Assembly (NCBI GenBank): GCA_963695345.1
Contig: OY968769.1
Span: 800,001-864,000 of the forward strand
Origin: an uncultured Methanomassiliicoccales archaeon
GTDB taxonomy: Archaea > Thermoplasmatota > Thermoplasmata > Methanomassiliicoccales > UBA472
DNA: 64,000 nucleotides
Direction of reading: 5' to 3'
A model generated the notes under the pieces. That model was not told the DNA's origin. It did not search any database and worked only from the letters and a program-made list of their open reading frames with translations. Shown here in pieces: positions 22,626-47,562 of the stretch. Numbering within the stretch: position 1 is the stretch's first letter; every line of letters starts with the position of its first letter. The position numbers were made by a program, and so were the translations under genes.

Positions 22626-22817
22626 ATGTGCGAGTCGACGGTCTTCATCGATGAGAACGGGGCGGTCAAGGAAGTCATGCGGGATGTCTCTAGGATCGTC
22701 ATCAATGGCGAGGAGACGGTCCTCACGGACATCTTGGGTCAGCGTATGGTCCTGGACGGGGTCACGCTCAAGGAAGCCAACCTCATGAGCCACGGGATCG
22801 TTTTCATGAGGAAGTAG
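22626..22817 (+). CDS. cooT: CooT-family nickel-binding protein
   Basis: MCESTVF...VMRDV...DILG...NLMSHGI: N-terminal Cys2 and C-terminal His; directly upstream of cooC. Confidence 0.85.
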   Translation: MCESTVFIDENGAVKEVMRDVSRIVINGEETVLTDILGQRMVLDGVTLKEANLMSHGIVFMRK

Positions 22818-22821
22818 GAAA

Positions 22822-23604
22822 ATGAAGATCGCTGTCGCCGGGAAGGGCGGGGTCGGCAAGACCACCGTTGCCGCCATGCTCGCCCGGTTGTATGCCCGCC
22901 AAGGCAGCAAGGTCATCGCCATCGACGCCGACCCGGCCACCAGCCTGGCATCGGCCTTGGGGGTGCCGAAGAAGGACCGGGAGTCGATCACGCCGCTGTC
23001 GGGAATGTTGGACCTGATCGAGGAACGGACCGGGGCAAGACCGGGAGCCAGCTACGGCGGCATGTTCAAACTGAACCCCAAGGTGGACGACATCGTCGAC
23101 CGATACGGTGTCCGCGCCCCGGACGGCGTCACCTTGATGGTCCTGGGAACCATCGACACGCCGGGAAGCGGATGCTTCTGCCCCGAGTCGTCGCTGCTCA
23201 AGGCGCTCATGTCCCACGTCCTTTCCGGCGAGGAGGTCGTCATCATGGACATGGAGGCGGGCCTGGAGCACCTGGGCCGGTCGACCGCGAGGAACGTCGA
23301 TGTCATGCTGATAGTGGTCGAACCGGGAATGCGCTCGGTGGATACCGCGGTCAACATCGCCCGGATGGCCAAGGAGATCGGCGTCGGCGAGATCCTGGTC
23401 GTCCTGAACAAGTGCGCGACGGAGAACGAGGAGGCGCTGGTGGCCAAGGAGCTGAAGAAGCAGCAGCTGGTGCTGATCGCGACCCTGCCGAACTCCAACG
23501 TGGTCAGGGGCGCGGACCTGTTGGGCGTTTCTCCGATGGACATGCCCGGCATCGAGACGCTGTTGCCGATATTCCAATTCATCAAGGACCGGATCGACGC
23601 ATGA
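22822..23604 (+). CDS. cooC: CO dehydrogenase nickel-insertion ATPase
   Basis: GKGGVGKT, IDADP, GCFCPE (CxC), DMEAGLEHLGR. Confidence 0.93.
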   Translation: MKIAVAGKGGVGKTTVAAMLARLYARQGSKVIAIDADPATSLASALGVPKKDRESITPLSGMLDLIEERTGARPGASYGGMFKLNPKVDDIVDRYGVRAPDGVTLMVLGTIDTPGSGCFCPESSLLKALMSHVLSGEEVVIMDMEAGLEHLGRSTARNVDVMLIVVEPGMRSVDTAVNIARMAKEIGVGEILVVLNKCATENEEALVAKELKKQQLVLIATLPNSNVVRGADLLGVSPMDMPGIETLLPIFQFIKDRIDA

Positions 23605-30773: not shown

Positions 30774-32326
30774 ATGGGCGTCGAGGAAGCTAACAGGGAA
30801 TTGCGCGAGATGAAACGGAGGTCCCGCGCCGGAGGCGGCGCGGACAAGCAGGACAAGCATCACAAGCAGGGCAAGATGACCGCCAGGGAGCGGATAGATG
30901 CCCTGCTGGACCCCGGCTCGTTCGTCGAGTTCGATGCCTTCGTGACGCACCAGTCCTGTCACTTCGGCATGGACAAGCACAAGGTCCCGGGCGACGGCGT
31001 CGTCACCGGCCATGGCACCATCGACGGACGCCAGGTGTACGTCTTTGCCCAGGACTTCACCGTGTTCGCCGGTTCCGTCGGCAAGATGCACGCCCAGAAG
31101 ATCTGCAAGATGTACGATTTCGCGGTCAAGACCGGCGCCCCCATCATCGGCATCTACGATTCCGGCGGAGCGCGCATCCAGGAAGGGGCCGACTCGCTCT
31201 CCGGGTTCGGCGAGATATTCTTCCGGAACGCCCTGGCGTCCGGCGTGATACCGCAGATAGCCATGGTCATGGGGCCGTGCGCCGGGGGCGCCTCGTTCTC
31301 CCCCGCCATGAACGATTTCGTGTTCATGGTCAAGGGCAAATCGCACATGTTCGTGGTGGGGCCGGACGTCATCAAGGCGGTACAGAAGGAGGATGTCACG
31401 TTCGAGGAGCTGGGCGGGGCCATGACCCATGCCACCAAGAGCGGCACCGCCCACTTCGTGGCCGAGGACGACATGGACTGCATCAAGAAGGTCAAGAAGC
31501 TGGTCTCCTTCCTGCCATCCAACAACCTGGACACCGCCCCGCACGGCGTGGGGAAGGACGACCCGGAACGTCGGGAGGACTCCCTCGACACCATCGTGCC
31601 GGAGGACCCGACCAAAGGGCTACGACATGCGTGAGGTCATCAAGAAGGTGGCCGACGACGCCGAGTTCCTCGAGGTGCAGGAGCACTGGGCCAGGAACAT
31701 CGTGGTCGGCTTCGCCCACATGGACGGGATCAGCATCGGCATCGTCGCCAACGAACCCTCGGTCTACGCCGGCACGCTGGACAACAACTCGTCGATCAAA
31801 GCGGCCCGTTTCGTTCGGTTCTGCGATTCCTTCAACATCCCCATCGTCACCTTCGTGGACGTCCCTGGCTATCTGCCGTCGGCGGAGCAGGAATATGAAG
31901 GGCTGGTGCGCAACGCGGCCAAGCTGTTGTACGCCTACTGCGACGCCACCACGCCCGAAGGTGACGGTCATCACGCGCAAGGCCATCGGCGGGGCCTACT
32001 GCGTGATGTCGTCCAAGCACATCCGCACCGACATCAACCTGGCATGGCCTTCCGCCGAGATAGCCATCGTCGGACCGGAAGGAGCCATCAACATAGTCTA
32101 TAAACAGGAGCTCATAATGGCAGACGACCCACAGGTGAAGCGGGACGAGCTCATCTCCGAGTACCGTAAGGCCTACGCGTCACCGTATGTGGCCGCGGAA
32201 CGGGGATACCTCGACGACATCATCGAACCGAAGGAGACCCGGTCCAGATTGATCAGCGCCCTGCATATGTTGGAGAAGAAGAGAGAGTCGAGACCGACCA
32301 AGAAGCACGGCAACATTCCGCTATGA
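30774..32326 (+). CDS. Acyl-CoA carboxyltransferase (PccB/MmdA/transcarboxylase 12S-like); frameshifts near 31617 and 31955
   Basis: [52 protein letters not shown]. Confidence 0.92.
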
Positions 32327-32336
32327 GGCTGTCCAG

Positions 32337-33828
32337 ATGAAGATAAAGATAATGGACACGGTATTGCGGGACGCCCACCAGTCGCTATTGGCGACCAGGA
32401 TGCGGACCGAGGACATGCTGCCCATAGCCCCGCTCATGGACGAGATCGGTTACTGGTCCGTGGAGATGTGGGGAGGCGCCACCTTCGACTCCTGCCTCCG
32501 CTACCTGAAGGAGGACCCCTGGGAGCGCATCACCAAGCTCAAGAAGGCGATGCCGAACACCCGGTTCCAGATGCTTCTCCGCGGACAGAACATCGTCGGA
32601 TACCGTCATTATTCGGACGACATCGTGGAGAAGTTCGTGCAGAAGGCGCACGCAGCGCGGGATCGACGTCTTCCGCATCTTCGACGCGCTCAACGACGTC
32701 AGGAACATGCAGTCGGCCATGAGGGCGGTCGAAACGCTCCGGGGCGATCGTGGAGGCGGCCATTGCCTACACCACCTCGCCGGTCCACAGCATCGACACC
32801 TTCGTCCAGATGGCCAACCGGCTGAAGGAGCTGGGTGCGGATACCTTGTGCATCAAGGACATGGCCGGACTCCTGAAGCCGTATGTGGCCTATGACCTGG
32901 TCAAGCAGCTGAGGGAGGAGACCGCCCTGCCCGGTGCACATGCACTGCCACGCCACCTCCGGAATGTCCGAATCATCCTACGTAAAGGGGATCGAGGCCG
33001 GCGCCGAGATCATCGACACCGCCATCTCGTCCATGTCCCAGGGGACCGCCCAGCCGCCCACCGAATCGATGGTGGCCATGCTCCGCGGGACGGAGTACGA
33101 CACCGGACTGGACCTGAAGAAGCTGCAGGAGATATCCGATTACTTCGAAAAGGTGCGGGAAAAGTACTCCGATTTCGAGAGCGGACACACCGGTGTCGAT
33201 ACCAACGCCCTCATCTACCAGATACCGGGGGGGATGATCTCCAATCTGGCCTCTCAGCTGAAGGAGGCAAAGCAGGAGCACAAGATCCAGGAGATCTATG
33301 AGGAGGTGCCCCGGGTCAGGGCCGACCTCGGCTATCCCGCCGCTGGTGACGCCGACCTCGCAGATCGTCGGTACCCAGGCGACCCTCAACGTCATTTCCG
33401 GTGAGCGGTACAAGATGGTCACCAACGAGACCAAGAACCTGGTGCGCGGGCTGTACGGACGCACGCCGGCGGAGATCGACCCCGCCGTCCGCAGGAAGAT
33501 CATCGGGGACGAGAAACCCATCACCGTCCGCCCTGCCGACCTGCTCGAGCCCGAGTATGACCGGTTGGCGCTGGAGATCGGCTCCTTGGCCAGGAACGAG
33601 GAGGACGTCCTCTCCTACGCGCTCTTCCCCCGGGAGGCCATTGAGTACTTCAAGGACCGGGAGATGAACGAGAAGGGCGTGAACCTGAAGGACATCGCCG
33701 CCGTCGCCGTTCTGTACATGCGCTCCACCGAGAAGAAGCCCGCCAAGGACATCTGCAAGGGGAAGGAAGACCAGTGGAAGAACGTGGCCCGCCGCGAACA
33801 GATGAGGCAAGGGGGGTGGCTGATCTGA
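32337..33828 (+). CDS. Pyruvate/oxaloacetate carboxyltransferase (transcarboxylase 5S/OadA-like, no biotinyl domain); about 4 frameshifts
   Basis: [23 protein letters not shown] (carbamylated Lys), [22 protein letters not shown]. Confidence 0.9.
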
Positions 33829-35607: not shown

Positions 35608-35853
35608 GTGCCATAGATGGCCTGACCGGATTAAAAAGGATGCCGTTTCGGATCGGGAATCCGACGTCCCAAACCGCAGGCCACGTGGGGTCTGACATTA
35701 ACCCGCTCGATCGGTGTTCGACGGATGTTGCCAGTACAAATAATATATTGTTTTATTAATATTATTAGTGAATATCTTAAGGATGCTTATTAAACCCAAT
35801 AAGCGGGTCAATCATTGATTGCGGTCGAGGCCACGGCCTTAGGGGGCATTGAA

Positions 35854-37335
35854 TTGAACGTGCTGAAGAACCTCAGTGTCGCCATCGTTGCGACGATGAT
35901 GATCCTTGTTTGTATATTGACAGTGTTACCTGACCAGGCACAGGCCGTGCCAGTGTCTGGCTGGAGCCCGGCCATACCGTTGAACGGTAATCGGTCCAGT
36001 GCCGCATCGGTCCAGGTGGGCGACACGGTATACATAATGGGCGGATTTAACACCACCTCGGTGGATATGACCAACTATGTTTTCACCTATGACCTTATGA
36101 CTGGGGCGAGTGTCCGGAAAGCGAATCTCCCGTACAAGACGGCCATCGCGGCCGCCGCTACCGATGGTAAAGAGATCTTTGTTGTCGGGAGCCTCAACAT
36201 CTCGGTCTCCCACTATATGGATACCCTTCAGATCTATAACATCAGCACGAACGTATGGACCGTCGGGCCACACATTCCAGTGGGGAGCGCCGGGGCTTGC
36301 GCGGCCGTCATTGGCAATAATCTCTATGTCGTGGGCGGATTCAACGCCACCGCTCCCTACGGTCTGAACGCCACCCAGATCTTTAACATTCATGATCGGA
36401 CCTGGAGCAATGGTTCATCTTTGCCGTTCGGCAGGTTCTGCGGCAGCTTGGTGGCCTACCATGGGTCCCTCTATCATATGGGGGGCATGGATGGTGCATC
36501 TGCCCGGACCAACTGCTACAAATGGGACCTGACCGGGTCCTGGTACTCGATCGCATCGATGCCGGAGGCGAGGGGCTTCAATAGCCTGGTGATAGGAACT
36601 GACGGATTGTTCTATACCGCAGGCGGATCGAGCCTCAATTCATTCGGCAGTGCCTGGAACAACTCATTCATCTATGACCCGACCGACAATGTCTGGAGCA
36701 GAGGTCCGAACCTGACCCAGGCTTGTACGTTGTCGGCCATGGGGGCATCGAGCAACGGTAATATCTTCCTCCTGGGAGGACGGAACTCAGCCGTCACCAA
36801 CTCGCGCGTCAGCTACATTGCCACGATGCCTTCCGCCCAATCGCAGGTGGATTCGCTGAATTCCCAGATATTGGCATTGCAGGGGAAACTGCAGGACATT
36901 GGCGCGAACATCTCGGACATCCAGGACAAGATGGACGATCAGGGGACTCAGATCGGGACGGCCCAAACGGCTCTCGGCAGCCTTCAGGTGCAGCTATCCG
37001 GTCTAAGGGCTCAGCTGAACGCAACCCAGGGCTCGATCACTGAACTCTCCACCGGCTACGAACAGCAGATGGGAGGATTGAGCTCCGAGCAGACCGCATC
37101 TGCCACACAACTGACCCAAATGCAGACCCAGATAGCGACCCTCATGGATGACCTCAACTCGACCCAGTCGCGGTTGACCCAGACCAGCAACGAAGTGGCC
37201 GGGGTCCAGAGCAGCGTGGATGGGCGGGCGGACGGGACCATGGGCCTCATAATCATGGTGCTTGCCATTGTGATGATGGTAATGGCAGCGTTCCTTATCG
37301 TTCTTGTAGCCAGGAAGAAAAAGGGGGTCCAGTAG
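35854..37335 (+). CDS. Surface protein: signal peptide, Kelch beta-propeller, coiled-coil stalk, C-terminal TM anchor
   Basis: YIMGG/YVVGG/YHMGG/YTAGG..W Kelch repeats; Q/S/T-rich heptads; TM + RKKK; start uncertain (35815-35860). Confidence 0.85.
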   Translation: MNVLKNLSVAIVATMMILVCILTVLPDQAQAVPVSGWSPAIPLNGNRSSAASVQVGDTVYIMGGFNTTSVDMTNYVFTYDLMTGASVRKANLPYKTAIAAAATDGKEIFVVGSLNISVSHYMDTLQIYNISTNVWTVGPHIPVGSAGACAAVIGNNLYVVGGFNATAPYGLNATQIFNIHDRTWSNGSSLPFGRFCGSLVAYHGSLYHMGGMDGASARTNCYKWDLTGSWYSIASMPEARGFNSLVIGTDGLFYTAGGSSLNSFGSAWNNSFIYDPTDNVWSRGPNLTQACTLSAMGASSNGNIFLLGGRNSAVTNSRVSYIATMPSAQSQVDSLNSQILALQGKLQDIGANISDIQDKMDDQGTQIGTAQTALGSLQVQLSGLRAQLNATQGSITELSTGYEQQMGGLSSEQTASATQLTQMQTQIATLMDDLNSTQSRLTQTSNEVAGVQSSVDGRADGTMGLIIMVLAIVMMVMAAFLIVLVARKKKGVQ

Positions 37336-37336
37336 G

Positions 37337-39118
37337 ATGATGCGAATGAAGAGGAAGGACAGCATCACGGCGATCATGATCGTGATGATGTTGACAATGG
37401 GCGCTTTGGTCATTGTTCCCGATACCGTGTCCGCGGTCAGCGGACCCGCTTGGACAACGATGCCTGCACTGCCAGTGAACCGTACCGAGTCGGCCTATGC
37501 CCAGGTGGGCAACACACTGTACATCATGGGCGGAGGGGTCAGCCCGCTGAGCAAGGATAACTTAGCTTACAGCTACAACATGACGAACGGTCTGACGACC
37601 GCACTGGCCACGATGCCGGTCGCGGATAGGGGATCCGCTGCCGCCGCCACCAATGACGGAAGGATATTCGTCTTCGGAGGAACTGTCGGCAGCGCAAAGA
37701 CCCAGATATACTACATATCGAACAACACTTGGATCATGGGGCCGGATATGCCGCATGGGGTCTGGCAGGGAAAAGCGGCCTACATGGTCAGTGACAACAG
37801 GATATACGTGGCCGGGGGAGAAGTGGCCGATCCAGCAAACTACCTGCAGATCCTCAACCTGGCCACAATGGTCTGGTCCGCCGGGACCCCATTACCAGTC
37901 GGTGTCGGGCAGGGCAATCTGGTCTCGTTCAACACCCAACTGCTGTACTTCGGTGGATATAACCAGACCAGTCATGCGACCAATGAGACCCTGTCCTATT
38001 CTGGAGGGACTTGGACAAAAGTGAAGCCGATGCCGGCCCCGCTGACCTACGCCGCCGCGGTTCGCGCGATCGATGATCAGATATATGTCATCGGAGGAAG
38101 TGACCAGTACATGCTGGCACAGAATTCCCTAGCTGGCGTATATGCCTATGAGCCGAGGTCCAAGACCTGGACCACCGTGGCAAGTCTGCCGGTACCGAGG
38201 GAGAACCCGGTCGCTGGCATCACATCGTACGGGACCATCGTCTGTGCCGGCGGATCGAACCTCAGCCAATCGATGAATACCGTGCTGTCTCTCCGCATCG
38301 CATCGATGTCAGTGACGACGGTGCTGTCATCCACTGTCAAGACCGGCGGACCGATTTCGGTCACGTTCACGGCAAGCATGACCTACCGCCCCCTGGCGTT
38401 TGTGGAGGGCGAGGTCTATCTGAAGGATGTTATGGGCGTATCATTCGATCTCGGATCGGCGTCCGCATCCTCCGGCCAGCAGATGACGACCTTCGACGTG
38501 CCTCAGTACGCCGCTCTGGGTTCGGCCAGGCTGAACGTGCCGGGGCTGACCGCGCACGACGCCAGGGGATACACCTGGACCTTGCCATCATTGACCTCGG
38601 CCGCTTTCACCATCGCCCCTGGACAACCGACACAGGACCAGATAGACATTCTGGCCACGAGGGTCATCGAACTCCAAGCGCAGTTGCTGGAACAGAACGC
38701 TTCACTGGCCGTCATGTCGGCGAACTCCACCTCTCAGGCATCCCAGGTGTATGTCCTGCAAGGTTCGATAGAGGCTGCCCAGGAGAACGTGGACCTCTTG
38801 AACGCCCAGCTGCTGACCGCACAGGCGCAGCTGGCATCGCTGCAGGCCCAGACCAATTCCTCGATCGGATCCGCCTCGGACTGGCAAAATCAGAGCCAAT
38901 CACAGTTGACCGCCCTGCAGGCGCAGATCGACCTGCTGAACGCCCAGGTGAATGAGAGCCAACAGCAACTGGGTCAGATCAGGACCGACGCCGGATCGGT
39001 GCAGGCCTCTGCCGACCGGAAGATGGACTCGACCACCGGCATGCTGGCGGTGGTCCTGATGATAGCGGCGATCGCCGGATTGGCACTGGCCATGGTCCTG
39101 GTGATGCGCAGGAAGTGA
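37337..39118 (+). CDS. Second surface Kelch protein with a beta-rich spacer, coiled-coil stalk and C-terminal TM anchor
   Basis: Six GG..W Kelch repeats; LQAQ heptads; TM + RRK. Confidence 0.87.
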   Translation: MMRMKRKDSITAIMIVMMLTMGALVIVPDTVSAVSGPAWTTMPALPVNRTESAYAQVGNTLYIMGGGVSPLSKDNLAYSYNMTNGLTTALATMPVADRGSAAAATNDGRIFVFGGTVGSAKTQIYYISNNTWIMGPDMPHGVWQGKAAYMVSDNRIYVAGGEVADPANYLQILNLATMVWSAGTPLPVGVGQGNLVSFNTQLLYFGGYNQTSHATNETLSYSGGTWTKVKPMPAPLTYAAAVRAIDDQIYVIGGSDQYMLAQNSLAGVYAYEPRSKTWTTVASLPVPRENPVAGITSYGTIVCAGGSNLSQSMNTVLSLRIASMSVTTVLSSTVKTGGPISVTFTASMTYRPLAFVEGEVYLKDVMGVSFDLGSASASSGQQMTTFDVPQYAALGSARLNVPGLTAHDARGYTWTLPSLTSAAFTIAPGQPTQDQIDILATRVIELQAQLLEQNASLAVMSANSTSQASQVYVLQGSIEAAQENVDLLNAQLLTAQAQLASLQAQTNSSIGSASDWQNQSQSQLTALQAQIDLLNAQVNESQQQLGQIRTDAGSVQASADRKMDSTTGMLAVVLMIAAIAGLALAMVLVMRRK

Positions 39119-39396: not shown

Positions 39397-41373
39397 ATGG
39401 CGACCAAGGGCAAAGGCAATCCGGAACGTACCTGCGACGCCGGGGCAAAGGACTGCATAGAGACAGCGGCCGCCAAGAAGATCGAGACCGCCTGGGACCG
39501 GTTCGAGCTGATGCAGCCGCAATGCGGCTTCGGAGAGCTCGGGGTGTGCTGCAACATTTGCCTTCAGGGCCCCTGCCGGATCAATCCATACGGGGGAAAG
39601 CCGGAGAAGGGCATCTGCGGCGCCCGGGACTATACGATCGTGGCCAGGAACCTCATCCGCCATATCGCGGGCGGCACCGCCTCACATTCGGGCCATGGCC
39701 GCCACATCGCCGACACGCTGCGGAAGGTGGTGGACGGGAACGCGCCGGCATATTCCATCAAGGACGAGAAGAAACTGAGGCGGGTCTCGGAACGGCTGGG
39801 GATCGATTGCCAGGGAAGGTCCAAGGAGGAACTGGCGAGGGCCGTCCTGATCAAGGTCTTCGACGACTATGGACGGAGCGAGAGTCTGCCCCTGAATTTC
39901 ACCACGGCCACTATCACCAAGCACCGCGCCGATCTTCTGGAATCGCTCGGGGTCATGCCTGACTCGATCGACCGTTCCATCGCCGACGTCATGCACCGCA
40001 CCTCGCTGGGCTGCGATGCCGATCCATTGCCCTTGCTCTTTGGCGGCATCCGGTGCGCCATCGCCGATTACAACGGAATGCAGATATCCACCGACCTGTC
40101 GGACATACTGTTCGGCACGCCCAGACTGGTCCGTACCTATGCCAACCTGGGTGCCCTCAAGGAGGATGCGGTCAACATCGCCATCCATGGTCACAACCCG
40201 GTGCTCAGCGAGGTCATCGTGGACGTCGCCCGGAAGATGGACGAGGAGGCCCGGCAGGCGGGCGCTTCGGGCATCAACATCGTCGGCATCTGCTGCACCG
40301 GGACCGAGGCGCTGATGCGGAAGGGGGTCTCCCTGGCCTCGAACTTCGCATCCCAGGAACTGGCGCTCGCCACCGGGGCGGTCGACCTGCTGGTGGCGGA
40401 TTACCAGTGCATAATGCCTTCGCTCTCGGAGATCTGCTCCTGCATGCACACCGAGATGGTGACCACGATGAGCAATGTCCGGATCCCCTATGACACCCAC
40501 GTCCAGTTCCGGGAGGAGGACGCCGAGGAGTCAGCGCGGTCGATCATCCGGATGGCCATCAAGTCCTTCCAACGGCGGGAACCGGCCAAGGTCAAGATCC
40601 CGAACGTCAGCTACGACGTGGTGGCCGGGTTCAGCACCGAGCAGATCGAGGAGCTGTGCGCACCGTTCGTACCGGAGGACCCGCTGATCCACATCGTCGA
40701 GGCCATCAGGTCCGGGCAGATACGGGGGATCGCGCTGCTGGCAGGCTGCAACAACCAGAAGGCGGTGCAGGACAGGAACCATCTGACCATCGCCAAGGAA
40801 ATGATCAAGCATGACGTCCTGGTGCTGACCACCGGATGTTCCGCCGGGGCCTGCGCCAAGAACGACCTTCTTTCCGCCGAGGCCACGGAGAGGTTCGCCG
40901 GACCCGGACTGAAGACGTTCATCCGGTCCCTCGAAGAGCGGAACGGGGTCAAGCTCCCGCCGATATGGCACATGGGTTCCTGCGTCGACAACTCCCGGGC
41001 CGCGAACCTGGCCAAGGAGATCGCGGTCCGACTGGGAACGGACGTCTCGGAGATACCGTTCGTCGTCTCGGCGCCCGAGGCGAATCACGAGAAGGCCGTG
41101 TCCATCGGCACCTGGTGCGTCGCCCTGGGCATGCCGGTCCACGTGGGCACCATCAGCTATGTTCACGGTTCGTCACTGGTCACCGAGGTGCTGGAGCACT
41201 CCGCCAGGGATGTCTTCGGCGGACATTTCATATTCGAGGCGGACCCGCACAAGGCATCGCACCGGCTGCTCAACACCATCGAACGCCGGCGCTGGATGCT
41301 GTCGTTCGAGAACCATTACGTGGTCGAGGACTCGAAGAAGCTCTCCAATCCAGGCTGTTCCGCATGGCCATAG
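39397..41373 (+). CDS. cooS: Bacterial-type [NiFe] CO dehydrogenase catalytic domain (probably fused to AcsB)
   Basis: D/B-cluster QCGFG..GVCCNIC.QGPC and GICG; C-cluster HGHNP, ICCTG, QCIMP, AGCNN, TGCSA, GSCVDNSR, EKA. Confidence 0.95.
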   Translation: MATKGKGNPERTCDAGAKDCIETAAAKKIETAWDRFELMQPQCGFGELGVCCNICLQGPCRINPYGGKPEKGICGARDYTIVARNLIRHIAGGTASHSGHGRHIADTLRKVVDGNAPAYSIKDEKKLRRVSERLGIDCQGRSKEELARAVLIKVFDDYGRSESLPLNFTTATITKHRADLLESLGVMPDSIDRSIADVMHRTSLGCDADPLPLLFGGIRCAIADYNGMQISTDLSDILFGTPRLVRTYANLGALKEDAVNIAIHGHNPVLSEVIVDVARKMDEEARQAGASGINIVGICCTGTEALMRKGVSLASNFASQELALATGAVDLLVADYQCIMPSLSEICSCMHTEMVTTMSNVRIPYDTHVQFREEDAEESARSIIRMAIKSFQRREPAKVKIPNVSYDVVAGFSTEQIEELCAPFVPEDPLIHIVEAIRSGQIRGIALLAGCNNQKAVQDRNHLTIAKEMIKHDVLVLTTGCSAGACAKNDLLSAEATERFAGPGLKTFIRSLEERNGVKLPPIWHMGSCVDNSRAANLAKEIAVRLGTDVSEIPFVVSAPEANHEKAVSIGTWCVALGMPVHVGTISYVHGSSLVTEVLEHSARDVFGGHFIFEADPHKASHRLLNTIERRRWMLSFENHYVVEDSKKLSNPGCSAWP

Positions 41374-43470
41374 ACGGCGCGCTCATCGCCACCGGCTTCG
41401 CCGACCAGCTGTTGGGGGTGGCGATCGAGAAGCATGGCTACGACAAGAAGATCGAGTACCCGGAGACCGCCTACGAACTGCCGTCCATATACGCCTGGGA
41501 CGGTTCCGAGGCGAAGAAACTGGGAGACCTGCCCGGCATCCTGGGCAAGGCGCGCGGCAAGATCCGGGAGACCTCGGACCTGGAGAGCGCCCTGGTCGCC
41601 GGCGAGGCCACCATGATCGCGGCCGAGATCATCGAGTCCCTGAAGTACCTGGACGATGCCAAGCCCTACGAGGGCACCATGTACACCGGTTTCGTCCCGG
41701 ACCGCATACTGCGGCAGCTGGGACTGGCCCTCGTCGACGACACCATCCCGGGAGCGGCGGTGCTGGTCGGCACGGCCAAGGACCCGAAGCAGCTGGTCAA
41801 GACCGTCAGGGCGTGCCAGAGCAAGGGCATGCTGATCTTCGCCTCCTATGATACCGTCAGACAGCTCAGGGACAACGGCATCCACATGGGATTGGACATG
41901 ATGCTCTACCCGGTCGGGGAGTTCACCCAGGTCATTCATGCCCTCAACTTCGCGATCCGCGCCGCCCTCTCCTTCGGCGGGGTGCAGAGAGGCGACCGGG
42001 AACGACTGGCCGGCTACATGAAGAAGCGGCCCAAGGTGTTCGTCCTGCAGTTCGGTCCGCTGGACGCGATCAAGGCCTCGGCCGAGTTCGCGGTGCTGCT
42101 GAACGGTTCCCCGGTGGTGGCCGACCAGATCCTGGAAGGCATACCGGACCGTTTCGTTACCCAAGCCCCGGAAAGCATGCTGCAGACGGCCATCGAACTG
42201 AGGGAAATCAAGGTGAAGGCGGCGGCCGGTGGACGTGCCGGTCGCCTACGGCGCGGCGTTCGAGGGCGAGACGGTCCGCCGACCGGACACCTACGTGGAG
42301 GCGGGCGGCGCCTCGAAGACACCCACCTTCGAGCTGCTCAGGATGAGGGAAGAAGCGGACGTCGAGGACGGCAAGATCACGGTCATCGGGAAGGACGTGG
42401 ACCAGATGGCCGACGGATCGTCGACCCCGCTGGCGATCGTCATCGACGTGTACGGCAAGAAGATGCAGGAGGACTTCGAATCGGTGATGGAACGGCGTAT
42501 CCACCTGTTCCTTAACTTCGCCGAGGGCGTCTGGCACACCGGGCAGAGGAATCTGAACTGGCTCCGCCTGAGCAAGAACGCCGTGGCCGCGGGCTTCCGC
42601 TTCAAGCATTTCGGCGACATACTCATCACCAAGATGAAGGAGGAGTTCGGCAACATCATCAGCCGGGTCCAGGTGACCATAATCACCGATGAGGAGGAGA
42701 TCAAGCGCCAGCTGCCGTCGGCCATGGAGGTGTACGCCAAGCGGGATGCCCGGATGGCCGGCCTGACCGATGAGGCGGTGGACACGTTCTATTCGTGCCT
42801 CATGTGCCAGTCGTTCGCCCCGGACCATATCTGCATCGTCACCCCGGAAAGACTGGGCCTGTGCGGGGCGATCAACTATCTGGACGCGAAGACGGGGAAG
42901 GAGATATCCCCCACCGGCCCGAACCAGCCGATATCCAAGGGCGAGACGGTGGACGCCGTCAAAGGCCAGTGGACGGGCGTCAACCAGGCGGTGTACGATC
43001 TCACGCACCATAAGCTGGAAAGGTTCAACGCCTACACCCTGATGGAGGACCCGATGACCTCGTGCGGCTGCTTCGAGTGCATCGTGGCCATGACGGCGGA
43101 CGTCCAAGCGGTCATCGTGGTCAACCGGGAGTTCCCGGGCATGACCCCGGTGGGGATGAAGTTCTCCACTCTGGCCGGTTCCATCGGCGGGGGCAAGCAG
43201 ACCCCGGGTTTCATCGGGGTGGGCAGGAAATACCTTATCAGCAAGAAATTCATCCCAGCGGACGGCGGTTTCCTCCGCATCGCGTGGATGCCCAAGGATC
43301 TGAAGGAGGCGATGCGCGGATCGCTGGAGAAGAGGGCGGCGGAACTGGGCGAACCGGGTTTCGTGGACAAGATCGCCGACGAGACGGTCACCACGGAAGC
43401 GGACGGACTGACGGAGTGGATGGCCAAGGTGGACCACCCGGCCCTGAGGATGCCGCCGCTGCTGCAATAA
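41349..43470 (+). CDS. acsB: Bacterial-type acetyl-CoA synthase with N-terminal domain; frameshift near 42225
   Basis: SRLFR..DGALIAT, YPETAYELP, DTIPG, YSCLMCQSFAP.HIC..PERLGLCGA, PMTSCGCFE (all A-cluster Cys present). Confidence 0.93.
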
Positions 43471-43490
43471 TGTTTCAGGAAGGTCATGAC

Positions 43491-44451
43491 ATGGTCGAGG
43501 TTCCAATCCCCAAGGAGAAGTGGACGGGCAAGATCGGCGTACTTGAGCTTGGCGCTTCGGCGGAGAAGGGCGGCTCCCGGGGGAAAAAGGTCCTGGTCGG
43601 GCGGCGAGCACCGGCATGCCCTTCCTTTCGTACGAAGGCACTTCGCCGAACCGGCAGATCATCGCCGGGGAGGTCATGGACACCACTCGACGAACTGCCC
43701 TCGGCGGTGGCGGAGTTCTTCGGGGACGCCGTCAAGGACCCGGCGCAGTGGGCGAAGGCCTGGGTGGAGAAGTACCACGCCGACGTCATCTGCCTGAAGC
43801 TGCTGTCGACCAACCCGGAAGAGGCGAACGTATCCCCCGAGGCGGCCGCCGAGACGGTGATGAAGGTACTGGCCGCGGTCGATGTCCCGCTGATCGTCTA
43901 TGGCTGCGGACAGGAAGAGAAGGACGCCAAGACCTTGGAAGCGGTCAGCAACATCGCGCCGAAGGAAAGGCTGCTGCTCGGCTACGCCGAGGAGGGGCAC
44001 TACAAGTCCATCTCCGCGGCGTCGATGGCCAACGACCACCCGCTCATCGCGTTCTCCAACCTGGACATCAACCTGGCAAAGCAGATCACCATCCTGCTCA
44101 CCGATTTCGGGGTGAAGAAGGACAACATCGCCATGGACCCGCTGATGGCCGGCCTGGGCATGGGGCTTGACTATTCCTATTCGGTCAACGAGCGCATCCG
44201 GCTGGCCGCCCTCATGGGAGACGGCATGCTGCAGCAGCCGATGCTGTGCGACTCCACCGCTTCGTGGAAGTCGGCCGAGGCGACCGACGAGATCGTAGGG
44301 TACGGCGACGCCGAAGGAGAGGGGTGTCTGGTGGGAGGCGACCACCGCCATAGCCGCCCTGGTCTCCGGAGCGGACATACTGGTCATGCGGCATCCAGGA
44401 GCGGCCGAGCTCGTGCGGGAAGCGCTGGACGATCTCAGGGGAGGGAACTGA
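43491..44451 (+). CDS. acsD: Corrinoid Fe-S protein small subunit; about 3 frameshifts
   Basis: PKEKWTGKI, PFLSYEG, LDINLAKQ, MDP..LG.GLDYSYSV.ERIRLAAL.GD.MLQ.P, GADILVMRHP. Confidence 0.9.
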
Positions 44452-45786
44452 ATGCCGACCGCCATCGAGATCTTCAAGCATCTGCCGAAGAAGAACTGCG
44501 GGGAGTGCAAGCACCCCACCTGCCTGGCGTTCGCCATGCAGCTCGCCAACCAGAAGGCCAAGCTGGAGGATTGCCCCTATGTCTCGGACGCCGGCAAGCA
44601 GTCGCTGGCGGCCTCCTCGGCCCCGCCGATCAGGTTGGTCAAGGTCGGGCACCGGCAAGGCCGACCCTGGAGATGGGCGACGAGACCGAGCTGTACCGCC
44701 ATGACAAGAAGTTCTTCCATCCGGTGCGCTACGCGATGACGGTCTCGGACACACTGACCGAGGCCGAGGCGATATCCAAGGTCCAGAAGGCCAATGCCAT
44801 GCGGTTCGAGCGGGTCGGACAGATCATGGCCCTGGACATGGTATGCGTCAGGAACGATTCCAAGGACGCGGGCAAGTTCGTGGCGATGGTCGACAAGGTG
44901 ATGTCGTCCACGGAACTGCCCACTGATCCTCTCCAGCGATGATCCGGTGGCGATCAGGGCGGCGGCTGCTGAGGATCTCGGCCAAGGTCCCGCTGCTCTC
45001 CGCGGCGACCACGGACGAACTTCGCCGAGATGGCCGCACTGGCCAAGGAGTTCAAGTGCCCTCTGGTGGTCAGGGAATCGAACCTCAACGACCTGGCCGA
45101 CCTGGTGGCAAAGGTCAAGCTGGCAGGCGTCGAGGACATCGTTCTGGACTTCGCTGCCGGGCAACCTCAAGGACCTGATCGAGAAGAGCACCATCATCCG
45201 CAAGCTCTCGGTCAAGAAGACGTTCCGCGGGCTCGGATATCCCTATGCTGGTGAACGCCCCGGACGGCAACCGCGGCATCACCATGGGACTGGTCTCCAC
45301 CATGAAGTACGGGTCGATCGTGGTGTTCGAGGACCTGCCGCCAGCAGATGGCCATACCTCTGTTCGTGCTCCGGCAGAACATCTATACCGACCCGCAGGT
45401 GCCGATCCAGGTCAAGCCCGGATCTGTACCCGATCGGCAATCCGACGGAGAACTCGCCGATCCTGTTCACGACCAACTTCTCGCTCACCTACTTCACCGT
45501 GCTGGGAGACATCGACAAGAGCAAGGTCCCGGTGTGGCTGCAGGTCGTCGACTGCGAGGGGCTCAGCGTGCTCACCGCGTTCGCCGCCGGGAAGCTGACC
45601 TCTGAAGGAGTCGTCCATGATCTGGACAAGTCCGGGGCTAGGACCAAGTCGAAGAAGAACGTCCTGATCATACCGGGCATGGTGGCTCGGATGGCGCCGA
45701 AGCTCGCCGAGCTCACCGGCATGAAGATCGTGGTCGGACCGAAGGAATCGTCCGGCCTGCCGAAGATGCTCAAGTCGCTCGAGTGA
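44452..45786 (+). CDS. acsC: Corrinoid Fe-S protein large subunit; multiple frameshifts
   Basis: LPKKNCGECKHPTCLAFA..CPY [4Fe-4S] motif, ETELYRH.K.F, RQNIYTDPQ.P, TTNFSLTYF, GLSVLTAFAAGK, VGPKESS. Confidence 0.9.
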
Positions 45787-46809: not shown

Positions 46810-47562
46810 TCATTTCAACGTACCCGCCAGCCCGACGACCGCCCGATAGAATTGACTGAGCGGGTCAAGCTGGACCAGTGGAGAGCCGGACACGGCCAAT
46901 TCCTCCACCTTCCGGTCGTAGGGCAGGTATGACACCGAACCGAAACCGGCCCCGTCTATCTCCCTCTGTACGACCTCTCCCACCGTTCCCTGGACCCGGT
47001 TGACCACCAGGACGCTCCGGCCCACCTCGATCTCCATCCCCCTTGCCAGTGCCAGCAGCCGCTTTCCCGTTTCTACCCCGAGCACCGTGGCGTCGGAAAC
47101 GACCAGCAGCACGTCCATCCTCTTCGTGGTACGTCTGGAAAGATGTTCCATGCCGGCCTCGTTATCTATGACGACATAGTCATAGGAGTCCATCGCCTCA
47201 TCGATGAACGTCCTCAGGATGTTATTGATGTAGCAGTAGCAGCCCCGACCCTCTGGCCGCCCCATGGTGAGCAGGTCGAAACCGCTTCCCTCCACCTTGG
47301 CCATTTCCATCTGGTAACGGACCAACTCGTGCTTGCTCAAGCCCGCTCCGAGCTCGTCCGCCCTCCTCAGCAGGTCCTCCCTCAGCTCACCGATGGTGTG
47401 CTCCACCTTCATGCCCAGCTTGTCGCCCAGATTGGAGTTGGGATCGGCATCGACGGCCATGACCACCGATCGCGTGCGTTCCGCGATGGCCTTGATAAGC
47501 AACGCTGACAGGGTGGACTTGCCCACCCCTCCCTTGCCCGCCACGGCCACTATGAAGGTCAA
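46810..47562 (-). CDS. cooC: CooC2/AcsF-type nickel-insertion ATPase
   Basis: GKGGVGKS, DADPNSNL, GRPEGRGCYCYIN, DNEAGMEHLSRRTT. Confidence 0.92.
   Translation of the reverse strand: MTFIVAVAGKGGVGKSTLSALLIKAIAERTRSVVMAVDADPNSNLGDKLGMKVEHTIGELREDLLRRADELGAGLSKHELVRYQMEMAKVEGSGFDLLTMGRPEGRGCYCYINNILRTFIDEAMDSYDYVVIDNEAGMEHLSRRTTKRMDVLLVVSDATVLGVETGKRLLALARGMEIEVGRSVLVVNRVQGTVGEVVQREIDGAGFGSVSYLPYDRKVEELAVSGSPLVQLDPLSQFYRAVVGLAGTLK

Follow-up and report, generated by a model that had tools for sequence, protein, structure and literature searches.

The stretch of DNA analysed here (the window; 64,000 nucleotides, contig OY968769.1) comprises positions 800001-864000 of the single-contig, 2.56 Mb genome of an uncultured Methanomassiliicoccales archaeon, for which completeness is estimated at 85%, as against 99% for its complete congener G007. 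[quoted passage not shown] The open reading frame (ORF) 39397..41373 encodes a 658-residue CooS-type CO dehydrogenase that matches the Pfam Prismane family (PF03063) at full length, with 538 bits against a cut-off of 27 and coverage of profile positions 1-512 of 513. It ends ...LLNTIERRRWMLSFENHYVVEDSKKLSNPGCSAWP*, with the stop at 41373, and does overrun the usual end of CooS, as had been noticed: beyond the conserved ...IERRRW helix the frame continues through MLSFENHYVVEDSKKLSN and then through unrelated residues until that stop. The start of AcsB is read in a different frame, as ...SRLFRMAIDGALIATGF..., and corresponds to the A1 domain (PF18537, CODH_A_N). This second frame degenerates past ...IKVKAAA near 42228, and the rest of AcsB (PF03598 and PF19436) is back in the first frame, which it keeps from 42229 as far as the stop codon at 43468-43470. 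PF18537, PF03598 and PF19436 each score above their cut-offs; the A1, CdhC and C-terminal domains are present.

Ungapped tblastn with the intact G007 orthologue recovered the gene in three pieces: 39397-41349 in frame 1 (88% identity), 41352-42227 in frame 3 (91%) and 42229-43467 in frame 1 again (96%). One base added and one removed give an ORF of 4074 nt and 1357 residues, which reproduces the arithmetic of the first-pass annotation; the letters that it had quoted from 41340-41366 are also found as stated.

Two interruptions of the cooS-acsB frame

The frame as assembled is interrupted twice, and in a nucleotide alignment with seven congeners over 4.07 kb the window has exactly two 1-nt indels: it is one base short near 41350 and one base over near 42224-42228. 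None of the seven congeners has an indel at either of these sites. In six of the seven other genomes of the genus the gene is one unbroken frame of 1368-1390 codons, so the orthologues are not consistently two genes with AcsB beginning at MAIDG. The AcsB N-terminus was also searched against 41 genomes of the same order, of which 37 gave a match, and in 17 of these 37 it lies in an open frame of at least 1300 codons. The proteins of about 1350 residues with both domains for which a search had been suggested are thus found in congeners and in many genomes of the order (approximately 1360-1390 codons).

Logan contigs of public sequencing runs, which we aligned to 40900-42700, remove both breaks (parts uncovered in runs X2-X4 are uninformative); none of the 22 runs listed was of RNA. 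An extra A behind 41350 is present in contigs of X1 (631 nt, 3 mismatches), X3 (256 nt, no mismatches) and X4 (293 nt, no mismatches), and with it the sequence reads AAT CAC AGG CTG, encoding N-H-R-L, the same residues as in the congener G001. According to the first-pass annotation the base was missing from the AA of 41347-41348: the effect on the frame is the same, and the position moves three bases further on. The compensating extra base that it had expected near 42225 is located at 42228 by the X1 contig (844 nt, 16 mismatches), from which this base is missing, and the seven congeners are one base shorter here; it is a G within a GG pair.

The first-pass annotation had also remarked on the number of indels in the window, and this was borne out when the intact ORFs of G007 were walked along the window at the protein level (nucleotide BLAST against G007, at 72-86% identity, is too diverged for indel counts). 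These walks gave 27 frame switches in 12 of the 33 window genes compared, 14 of them within the 6.4-kb cooS-acsB/acsD/acsC operon. Since the frame switches are many and the protein pieces of the shifted genes nevertheless keep 78-98% identity to G007, the pattern points to an indel-rich, unpolished assembly rather than to gene decay. The annotation of the source genome will under-call many genes, in line with its completeness of 85%.

Two side observations concern the distribution of these switches. A GC-rich stretch from about 29.1/30.7 to 45.8 kb (60-64% GC) holds 20-21 of the 27, and within it the carboxyltransferase (PF01039) and PYC_OADA/HMGL-like carboxylase genes at 30774-33825 have 2 and 4, respectively, their pieces being 73-98% identical to G007 in a gapped walk.

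Table 1. Parts of the fused gene and neighbouring CODH/ACS-related genes, in window coordinates
Feature	Position	Strand	Evidence
CooS (Ni,Fe-CO dehydrogenase) module, residues 1-633, to the ...ERRRW helix	39397..41295	+	Pfam Prismane 3e-161
Short connecting segment (MLSFENHYVVEDSKKLSN..), site of the very probable assembly deletion	41296..41351	+	One A missing behind 41350
AcsB N-terminal (A1) domain, frame 3	41352..42227	+	PF18537 CODH_A_N 2.4e-27; 91% to G007 residues 664-955
Extra G, very probably spurious (assembly insertion)	42228	+	Omitted in X1 contig; one base fewer in all 7 congeners
AcsB A2-A3 domains, with A-cluster motifs and stop codon	42229..43470	+	PF03598 CdhC 1e-65, PF19436 9.8e-117
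acsD-like gene, corrinoid Fe-S protein small subunit (CdhD family)	43451..44448	+	Pfam on G007 orthologue; 4 frame switches
acsC-like gene, corrinoid Fe-S protein large subunit (FeS and CdhD domains)	44443..45786	+	Pfam on G007 orthologue; 8 frame switches
CooC/AcsF-like P-loop ATPase	46813..47562	-	AAA_31, CbiA, ArsA_ATPase on G007 orthologue; 84% identical in window

The fused protein and its junction

For structure matches we used the 1357-residue G007 orthologue (P0003) as the query. Its residues 10-638 match solved CODH chains, with E-values of 1e-190 to 1e-206, and its residues 643/645-1356 match solved AcsB chains at about 1e-240, the alignment with 1oao_C covering residues 14-729 of that chain. 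No chain found in the PDB search with this query covers both modules by sequence, and every CODH/ACS matched is a multi-chain complex, in agreement with the first-pass statement that characterised bacterial CODH/ACS uses separate chains.

The ligands of all four clusters are intact, as had been claimed for the corrected ORF. Those of the D-, B- and C-clusters (C43, C51, C52, C55, C60, C74, H266, C300, C338, C451, C481 and C529) are all present in the window, and the A-cluster motifs Cys-x2-Cys-x8-Cys-x9-Cys and Cys-Gly-Cys are found in the translation of 42229-43467. Across 75 fused homologues these ligands are invariant or nearly so. The ligand names follow what we take to be CODH-II numbering, which is consistent with the offsets of the structure alignments.

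The junction in the window can be aligned with the congeners' junctions, and within the genus it reads ..RRRW(T/M)LS(L/F)D.(H/Y)Y.VEEGKKLSN.RL(Y/F)RMAIDGA... The conserved KKLSN-x-RL(F/Y)RMAIDGA spans the join, and the differences among congeners are mostly synonymous. More widely, both motifs were located in 95 of 120 database homologues, and in these 95 ..RRW and ..AI(D/E)G.. are 24-35 residues apart.

The linker model that the first-pass annotation had called for was made with AlphaFold2 for residues 1-960 of the G007 protein (CooS, junction and A1), as a monomer and from a 75-sequence alignment. The predicted TM-score (pTM) is 0.90 and the mean predicted local distance difference test score (pLDDT) is 88. 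The junction, residues 635-650, is predicted to be an ordered coil with pLDDT values of 90-94, flanked by helix 617-634, the last of CooS, and helix 651-680, the first of AcsB, and the model fits an arrangement in which A1 docks on the CooS module of its own chain. When the 960-residue model was compared with the PDB by Foldseek, the 50 best matches listed were single-module chains only, with a best query TM-score of 0.65 and at most 657 aligned columns.

Relatives, origin and genomic context

When 5.8 billion proteins were searched through a word index, the junction region as query gave 246 relatives of 746-2375 residues. Among the 120 best of these, 119 contain the Prismane and AcsB N-terminal domains together and 104 are at least 1250 residues long. 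The relatives with named sources come from metagenome-assembled genomes (MAGs) of Methanomassiliicoccales, Thermoplasmata, Methanobacteriota, Bathyarchaeia or Halobacteriota, and the nearest named ones are Methanomassiliicoccales MAGs. Contrary to what the first-pass annotation had implied, the fusion is not rare: a large archaeal clade has it as its standard form, and hundreds of public database entries contain it.

In GTDB species genomes, 38 of the 80 loci returned were inspected. In 16 of them the fused frame is uninterrupted and at least 1365 codons long, and in another 5 the gene is fused but broken up by a frameshift, an intein or the end of the contig. Two ORFs with overlapping stop and start account for 9 loci, all from Thermoplasmata, and two ORFs 10-130 nt apart for 5, all from Bacillota; the others are L069 (a 1003-codon frame), L073 (masked) and L074 (CooS without an adjacent full AcsB). 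In an AcsB tree of 40 rows, with the root placed on Bacillota by choice, three state changes suffice, which fits one fusion followed by two later losses of the CODH half. From these sequences, a path in which a bacterial-type cooS-acsB pair led to overlapping genes in Thermoplasmata, then to fusion and, in some lineages, to loss or decay of the CODH half would be consistent with the tree.

Several variants of the gene were seen along the way. Fused homologues of 1894-1896 residues exist (L030:1224-6911 on the minus strand, P0030 and P0032), with an intein containing a LAGLIDADG domain at residues ~1145-1675, in the ACS C-terminal region. In L069:1871-4879 (+), from a related lineage, AcsB is preceded in frame by approximately 300 residues that include a ..ERRRWSLGLDD CooS tail, with neither the CooS cysteine ligands nor a Pfam Prismane match, and this extension looks like what decay has left of the CODH half in an earlier fusion. 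G008, G010, G015, G021 and G027 also have open frames of approximately 1000 codons (of this type, L069 alone was inspected). AcsB-only genes of 721-755 residues occur at L031 (in G014) and L032 (in G029), and also in G009, G023, G033, G037 and G038; there is no cooS upstream of the one in L031, the single locus whose upstream region was checked. They form long branches nested within the fused clade of the AcsB tree, which suggests secondary loss of the CODH module. The Thermoplasmata MAG loci L060-L068 have separate cooS and acsB ORFs, the stop of the first overlapping the start of the second by a few bases. A segment of the CooS tail (..GYTKEDVFAE..) is similar to the beginning of the AcsB helix (..TQTELFGMA..), a likeness that may bear on the origin of the fusion or of the split.

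In the window, the acsD-like gene starts within the 3′ end of the fused gene and is followed by the acsC-like gene (Table 1). The CooC/AcsF-like ATPase encoded nearby is likely a Ni-insertion factor. This CooC/MinD-like copy, at 46813-47562 (-), adjoins the CODH/ACS operon, and a second P-loop ATPase paralogue of this kind lies at 22810-23601 (+), the two being approximately 30-34% identical. Directly upstream of the fused gene, 35815-39118 holds two tandem paralogous genes for proteins of 506 and 593 residues, the latter (37337-39118) with a signal-like segment at its N-terminus and a hydrophobic anchor at its C-terminus; this pair is only 25-35% identical to the two G007 genes in the same position. 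Elsewhere in the source genome there are two more Prismane-family genes, at G000:C1:925341-926996 and G000:C1:1532988-1534188. One has an undisturbed frame of 657 codons and would encode either a hybrid-cluster protein or a second CooS; the other is split over two frames, with an internal TGA.

The source genome encodes McrA (G000:C1:2370480-2370860) and a formate-tetrahydrofolate ligase (G000:C1:869809-871470), on which grounds the host is a methanogen-type member of the Methanomassiliicoccales with a folate C1 branch next to its bacterial-type CODH/ACS. In the passages of Speth and Orphan (2018; PMC6147122) that concern such a genome, it is proposed that ACS/CODH may serve acetate cleavage or folate-linked methyl metabolism, and the fusion is not mentioned there.

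The product is very probably one chain of 1357 residues, made up of a complete CooS-type CODH, a connection of ~16-20 residues and a complete three-domain bacterial-type AcsB. By analogy with the solved two-chain enzymes, such a chain would dimerise via its CooS module, giving a homodimer equivalent to the bacterial alpha2beta2 CODH/ACS. CO2 would be reduced to CO at the C-cluster, and an internal tunnel would carry the CO into the tethered A1 domain, then to the A-cluster, where it would be joined with CoA and with a methyl group from the corrinoid Fe-S protein encoded downstream by acsD and acsC to form acetyl-CoA, or the reverse. Being fused, CODH and ACS would always be present 1:1 and in permanent contact. 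A bolder version, which we regard as rather unlikely, is that the tether locks A1 onto CooS through the ordered linker, producing a CODH-ACS that could not dissociate and would channel obligately, perhaps as a domain-swapped dimer or with its gas tunnel rerouted; run in the cleavage direction by folate-pathway methanogens of the Methanomassiliicoccales, this enzyme would make aceticlastic or methyl-disproportionating methanogenesis possible with a single chain of bacterial type. If that were true, the tether would be more than a stoichiometry device.

Alternatives, significance and known systems

We are highly confident that both breaks, the A missing behind 41350 and the extra G at 42228, are assembly errors and not biology, and that the gene is a fusion. 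The congener frames together with the short-read contigs support the natural covalent CooS-AcsB fusion put forward in the first-pass annotation. Some points pull the other way. The short-read contigs may derive from the source sample itself or from sister strains and are not fully independent of the assembly, and the second indel is corrected by one contig only, about 98% identical. As to the protein, dimerisation, in-cis docking and channelling are inferred from the solved two-chain complexes and from the 960-residue monomer model of a congener, and the arrangement in a dimer may be domain-swapped. If the frameshifts were real in the source strain, the fused gene would have decayed to a pseudogene, or would have been split again into a CooS ending at 41373 and AcsB fragments. 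The frameshifts do stand in the assembled sequence, G001 is also frameshifted in this gene (by its own, unrelated 1-nt insertion at a C run), and the CooS module has truly been lost or degraded in some related lineages. We nevertheless consider decay or re-splitting quite improbable, because the first frameshift is absent from near-identical contigs of three runs and the second from one, because switches spread over so many genes with well-conserved pieces are the pattern expected of error, and because every catalytic ligand in the window gene is intact.

Even less credit is due to the idea that, although the long frame is real, translation from the internal ATG at 41364 yields some or most of the AcsB as a separate chain, which would give a functional two-chain enzyme as in bacteria. 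In this genus the first AcsB helix (RMAIDGA) does have an in-frame Met at its start. It lies inside that conserved helix, however, and the homology to solved AcsB begins upstream of it, as the first-pass annotation had argued, with query residues 643-645 aligning to AcsB residues 11-14. Because this position is Lys in several fused homologues (..LYSKAIDGA), and because split relatives begin AcsB 8-20 residues earlier (MTKVTQTELFGMAISGA..), Met 41364 is not a conserved initiation codon. Programmed ribosomal frameshifting (+1/-1) that joins the frames during translation deserves practically no weight. It would account for two compensating shifts in one gene, but the same protein is encoded in a single unshifted frame in all six intact congeners and in many distant relatives, the short-read contigs eliminate the shifts, and 25 further frame switches are found in other genes of the assembly; the first-pass annotation had likewise judged a programmed -1 shift to be the less likely explanation.

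The CooS-AcsB fusion is thus a genuine, conserved and biochemically uncharacterised variant of the well-known CODH/ACS, and what is specific to this window is only that assembly errors hide it. Full-text literature searches of main texts found no description of such a fusion. The main text of Inoue et al. (2019), in the part concerned, refers fused Ni-CODHs to its Supplementary Table 1, and the relevant sections of a 2026 preprint record AcsB in Methanomassiliicoccales and other archaea and discuss prismane-CdhC fusions only. Since the fusion is common in public data, its value lies in its uncharacterised status and not in its discovery. A natural single-chain version offers a simple construct of fixed stoichiometry for expression, structure and gas-channel studies, and it reveals which chain termini can be joined, with the AlphaFold2 construct suggesting that the joint is ordered.

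Both modules are full length and strongly similar to those of the bacterial AcsA/AcsB alpha2beta2 enzymes of Moorella thermoacetica (PDB 1MJG, 1OAO), Carboxydothermus hydrogenoformans (7ZKJ) and Clostridium autoethanogenum (6YTT), with which the fused protein also shares all cluster ligands and the adjacency of the corrinoid Fe-S protein genes. Whereas the solved bacterial enzymes consist of two chains, here ~16-20 residues link the final helix of CooS covalently to the opening helix of AcsB, and the host of the gene is an archaeon. The closest relatives by sequence outside the fused clade are the split cooS-acsB pairs of Thermoplasmata MAGs and of the Bacillota Natroniella and Heliobacteriaceae, at 41-60% identity over the junction query. 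These have the same gene order as the fused gene but are two ORFs, which in Thermoplasmata overlap at stop and start, with a CooS tail of about 36 residues and a start of its own for AcsB; their place in the Bacillota-rooted AcsB tree is outside the fused clade or next to it. The archaeal ACDS complex (acetyl-CoA decarbonylase/synthase), CdhA-E, has its overall chemistry in common with the fused protein, which differs from it in having the bacterial A1 domain and a CooS-type rather than a Cdh-type CODH. From the single-chain CooS-AcsB proteins in the databases, with the same four Pfam domains, 1300-1400 residues and junctions of 24-35 residues, the window gene does not differ in kind, and its broken look is very probably due to the two assembly indels.

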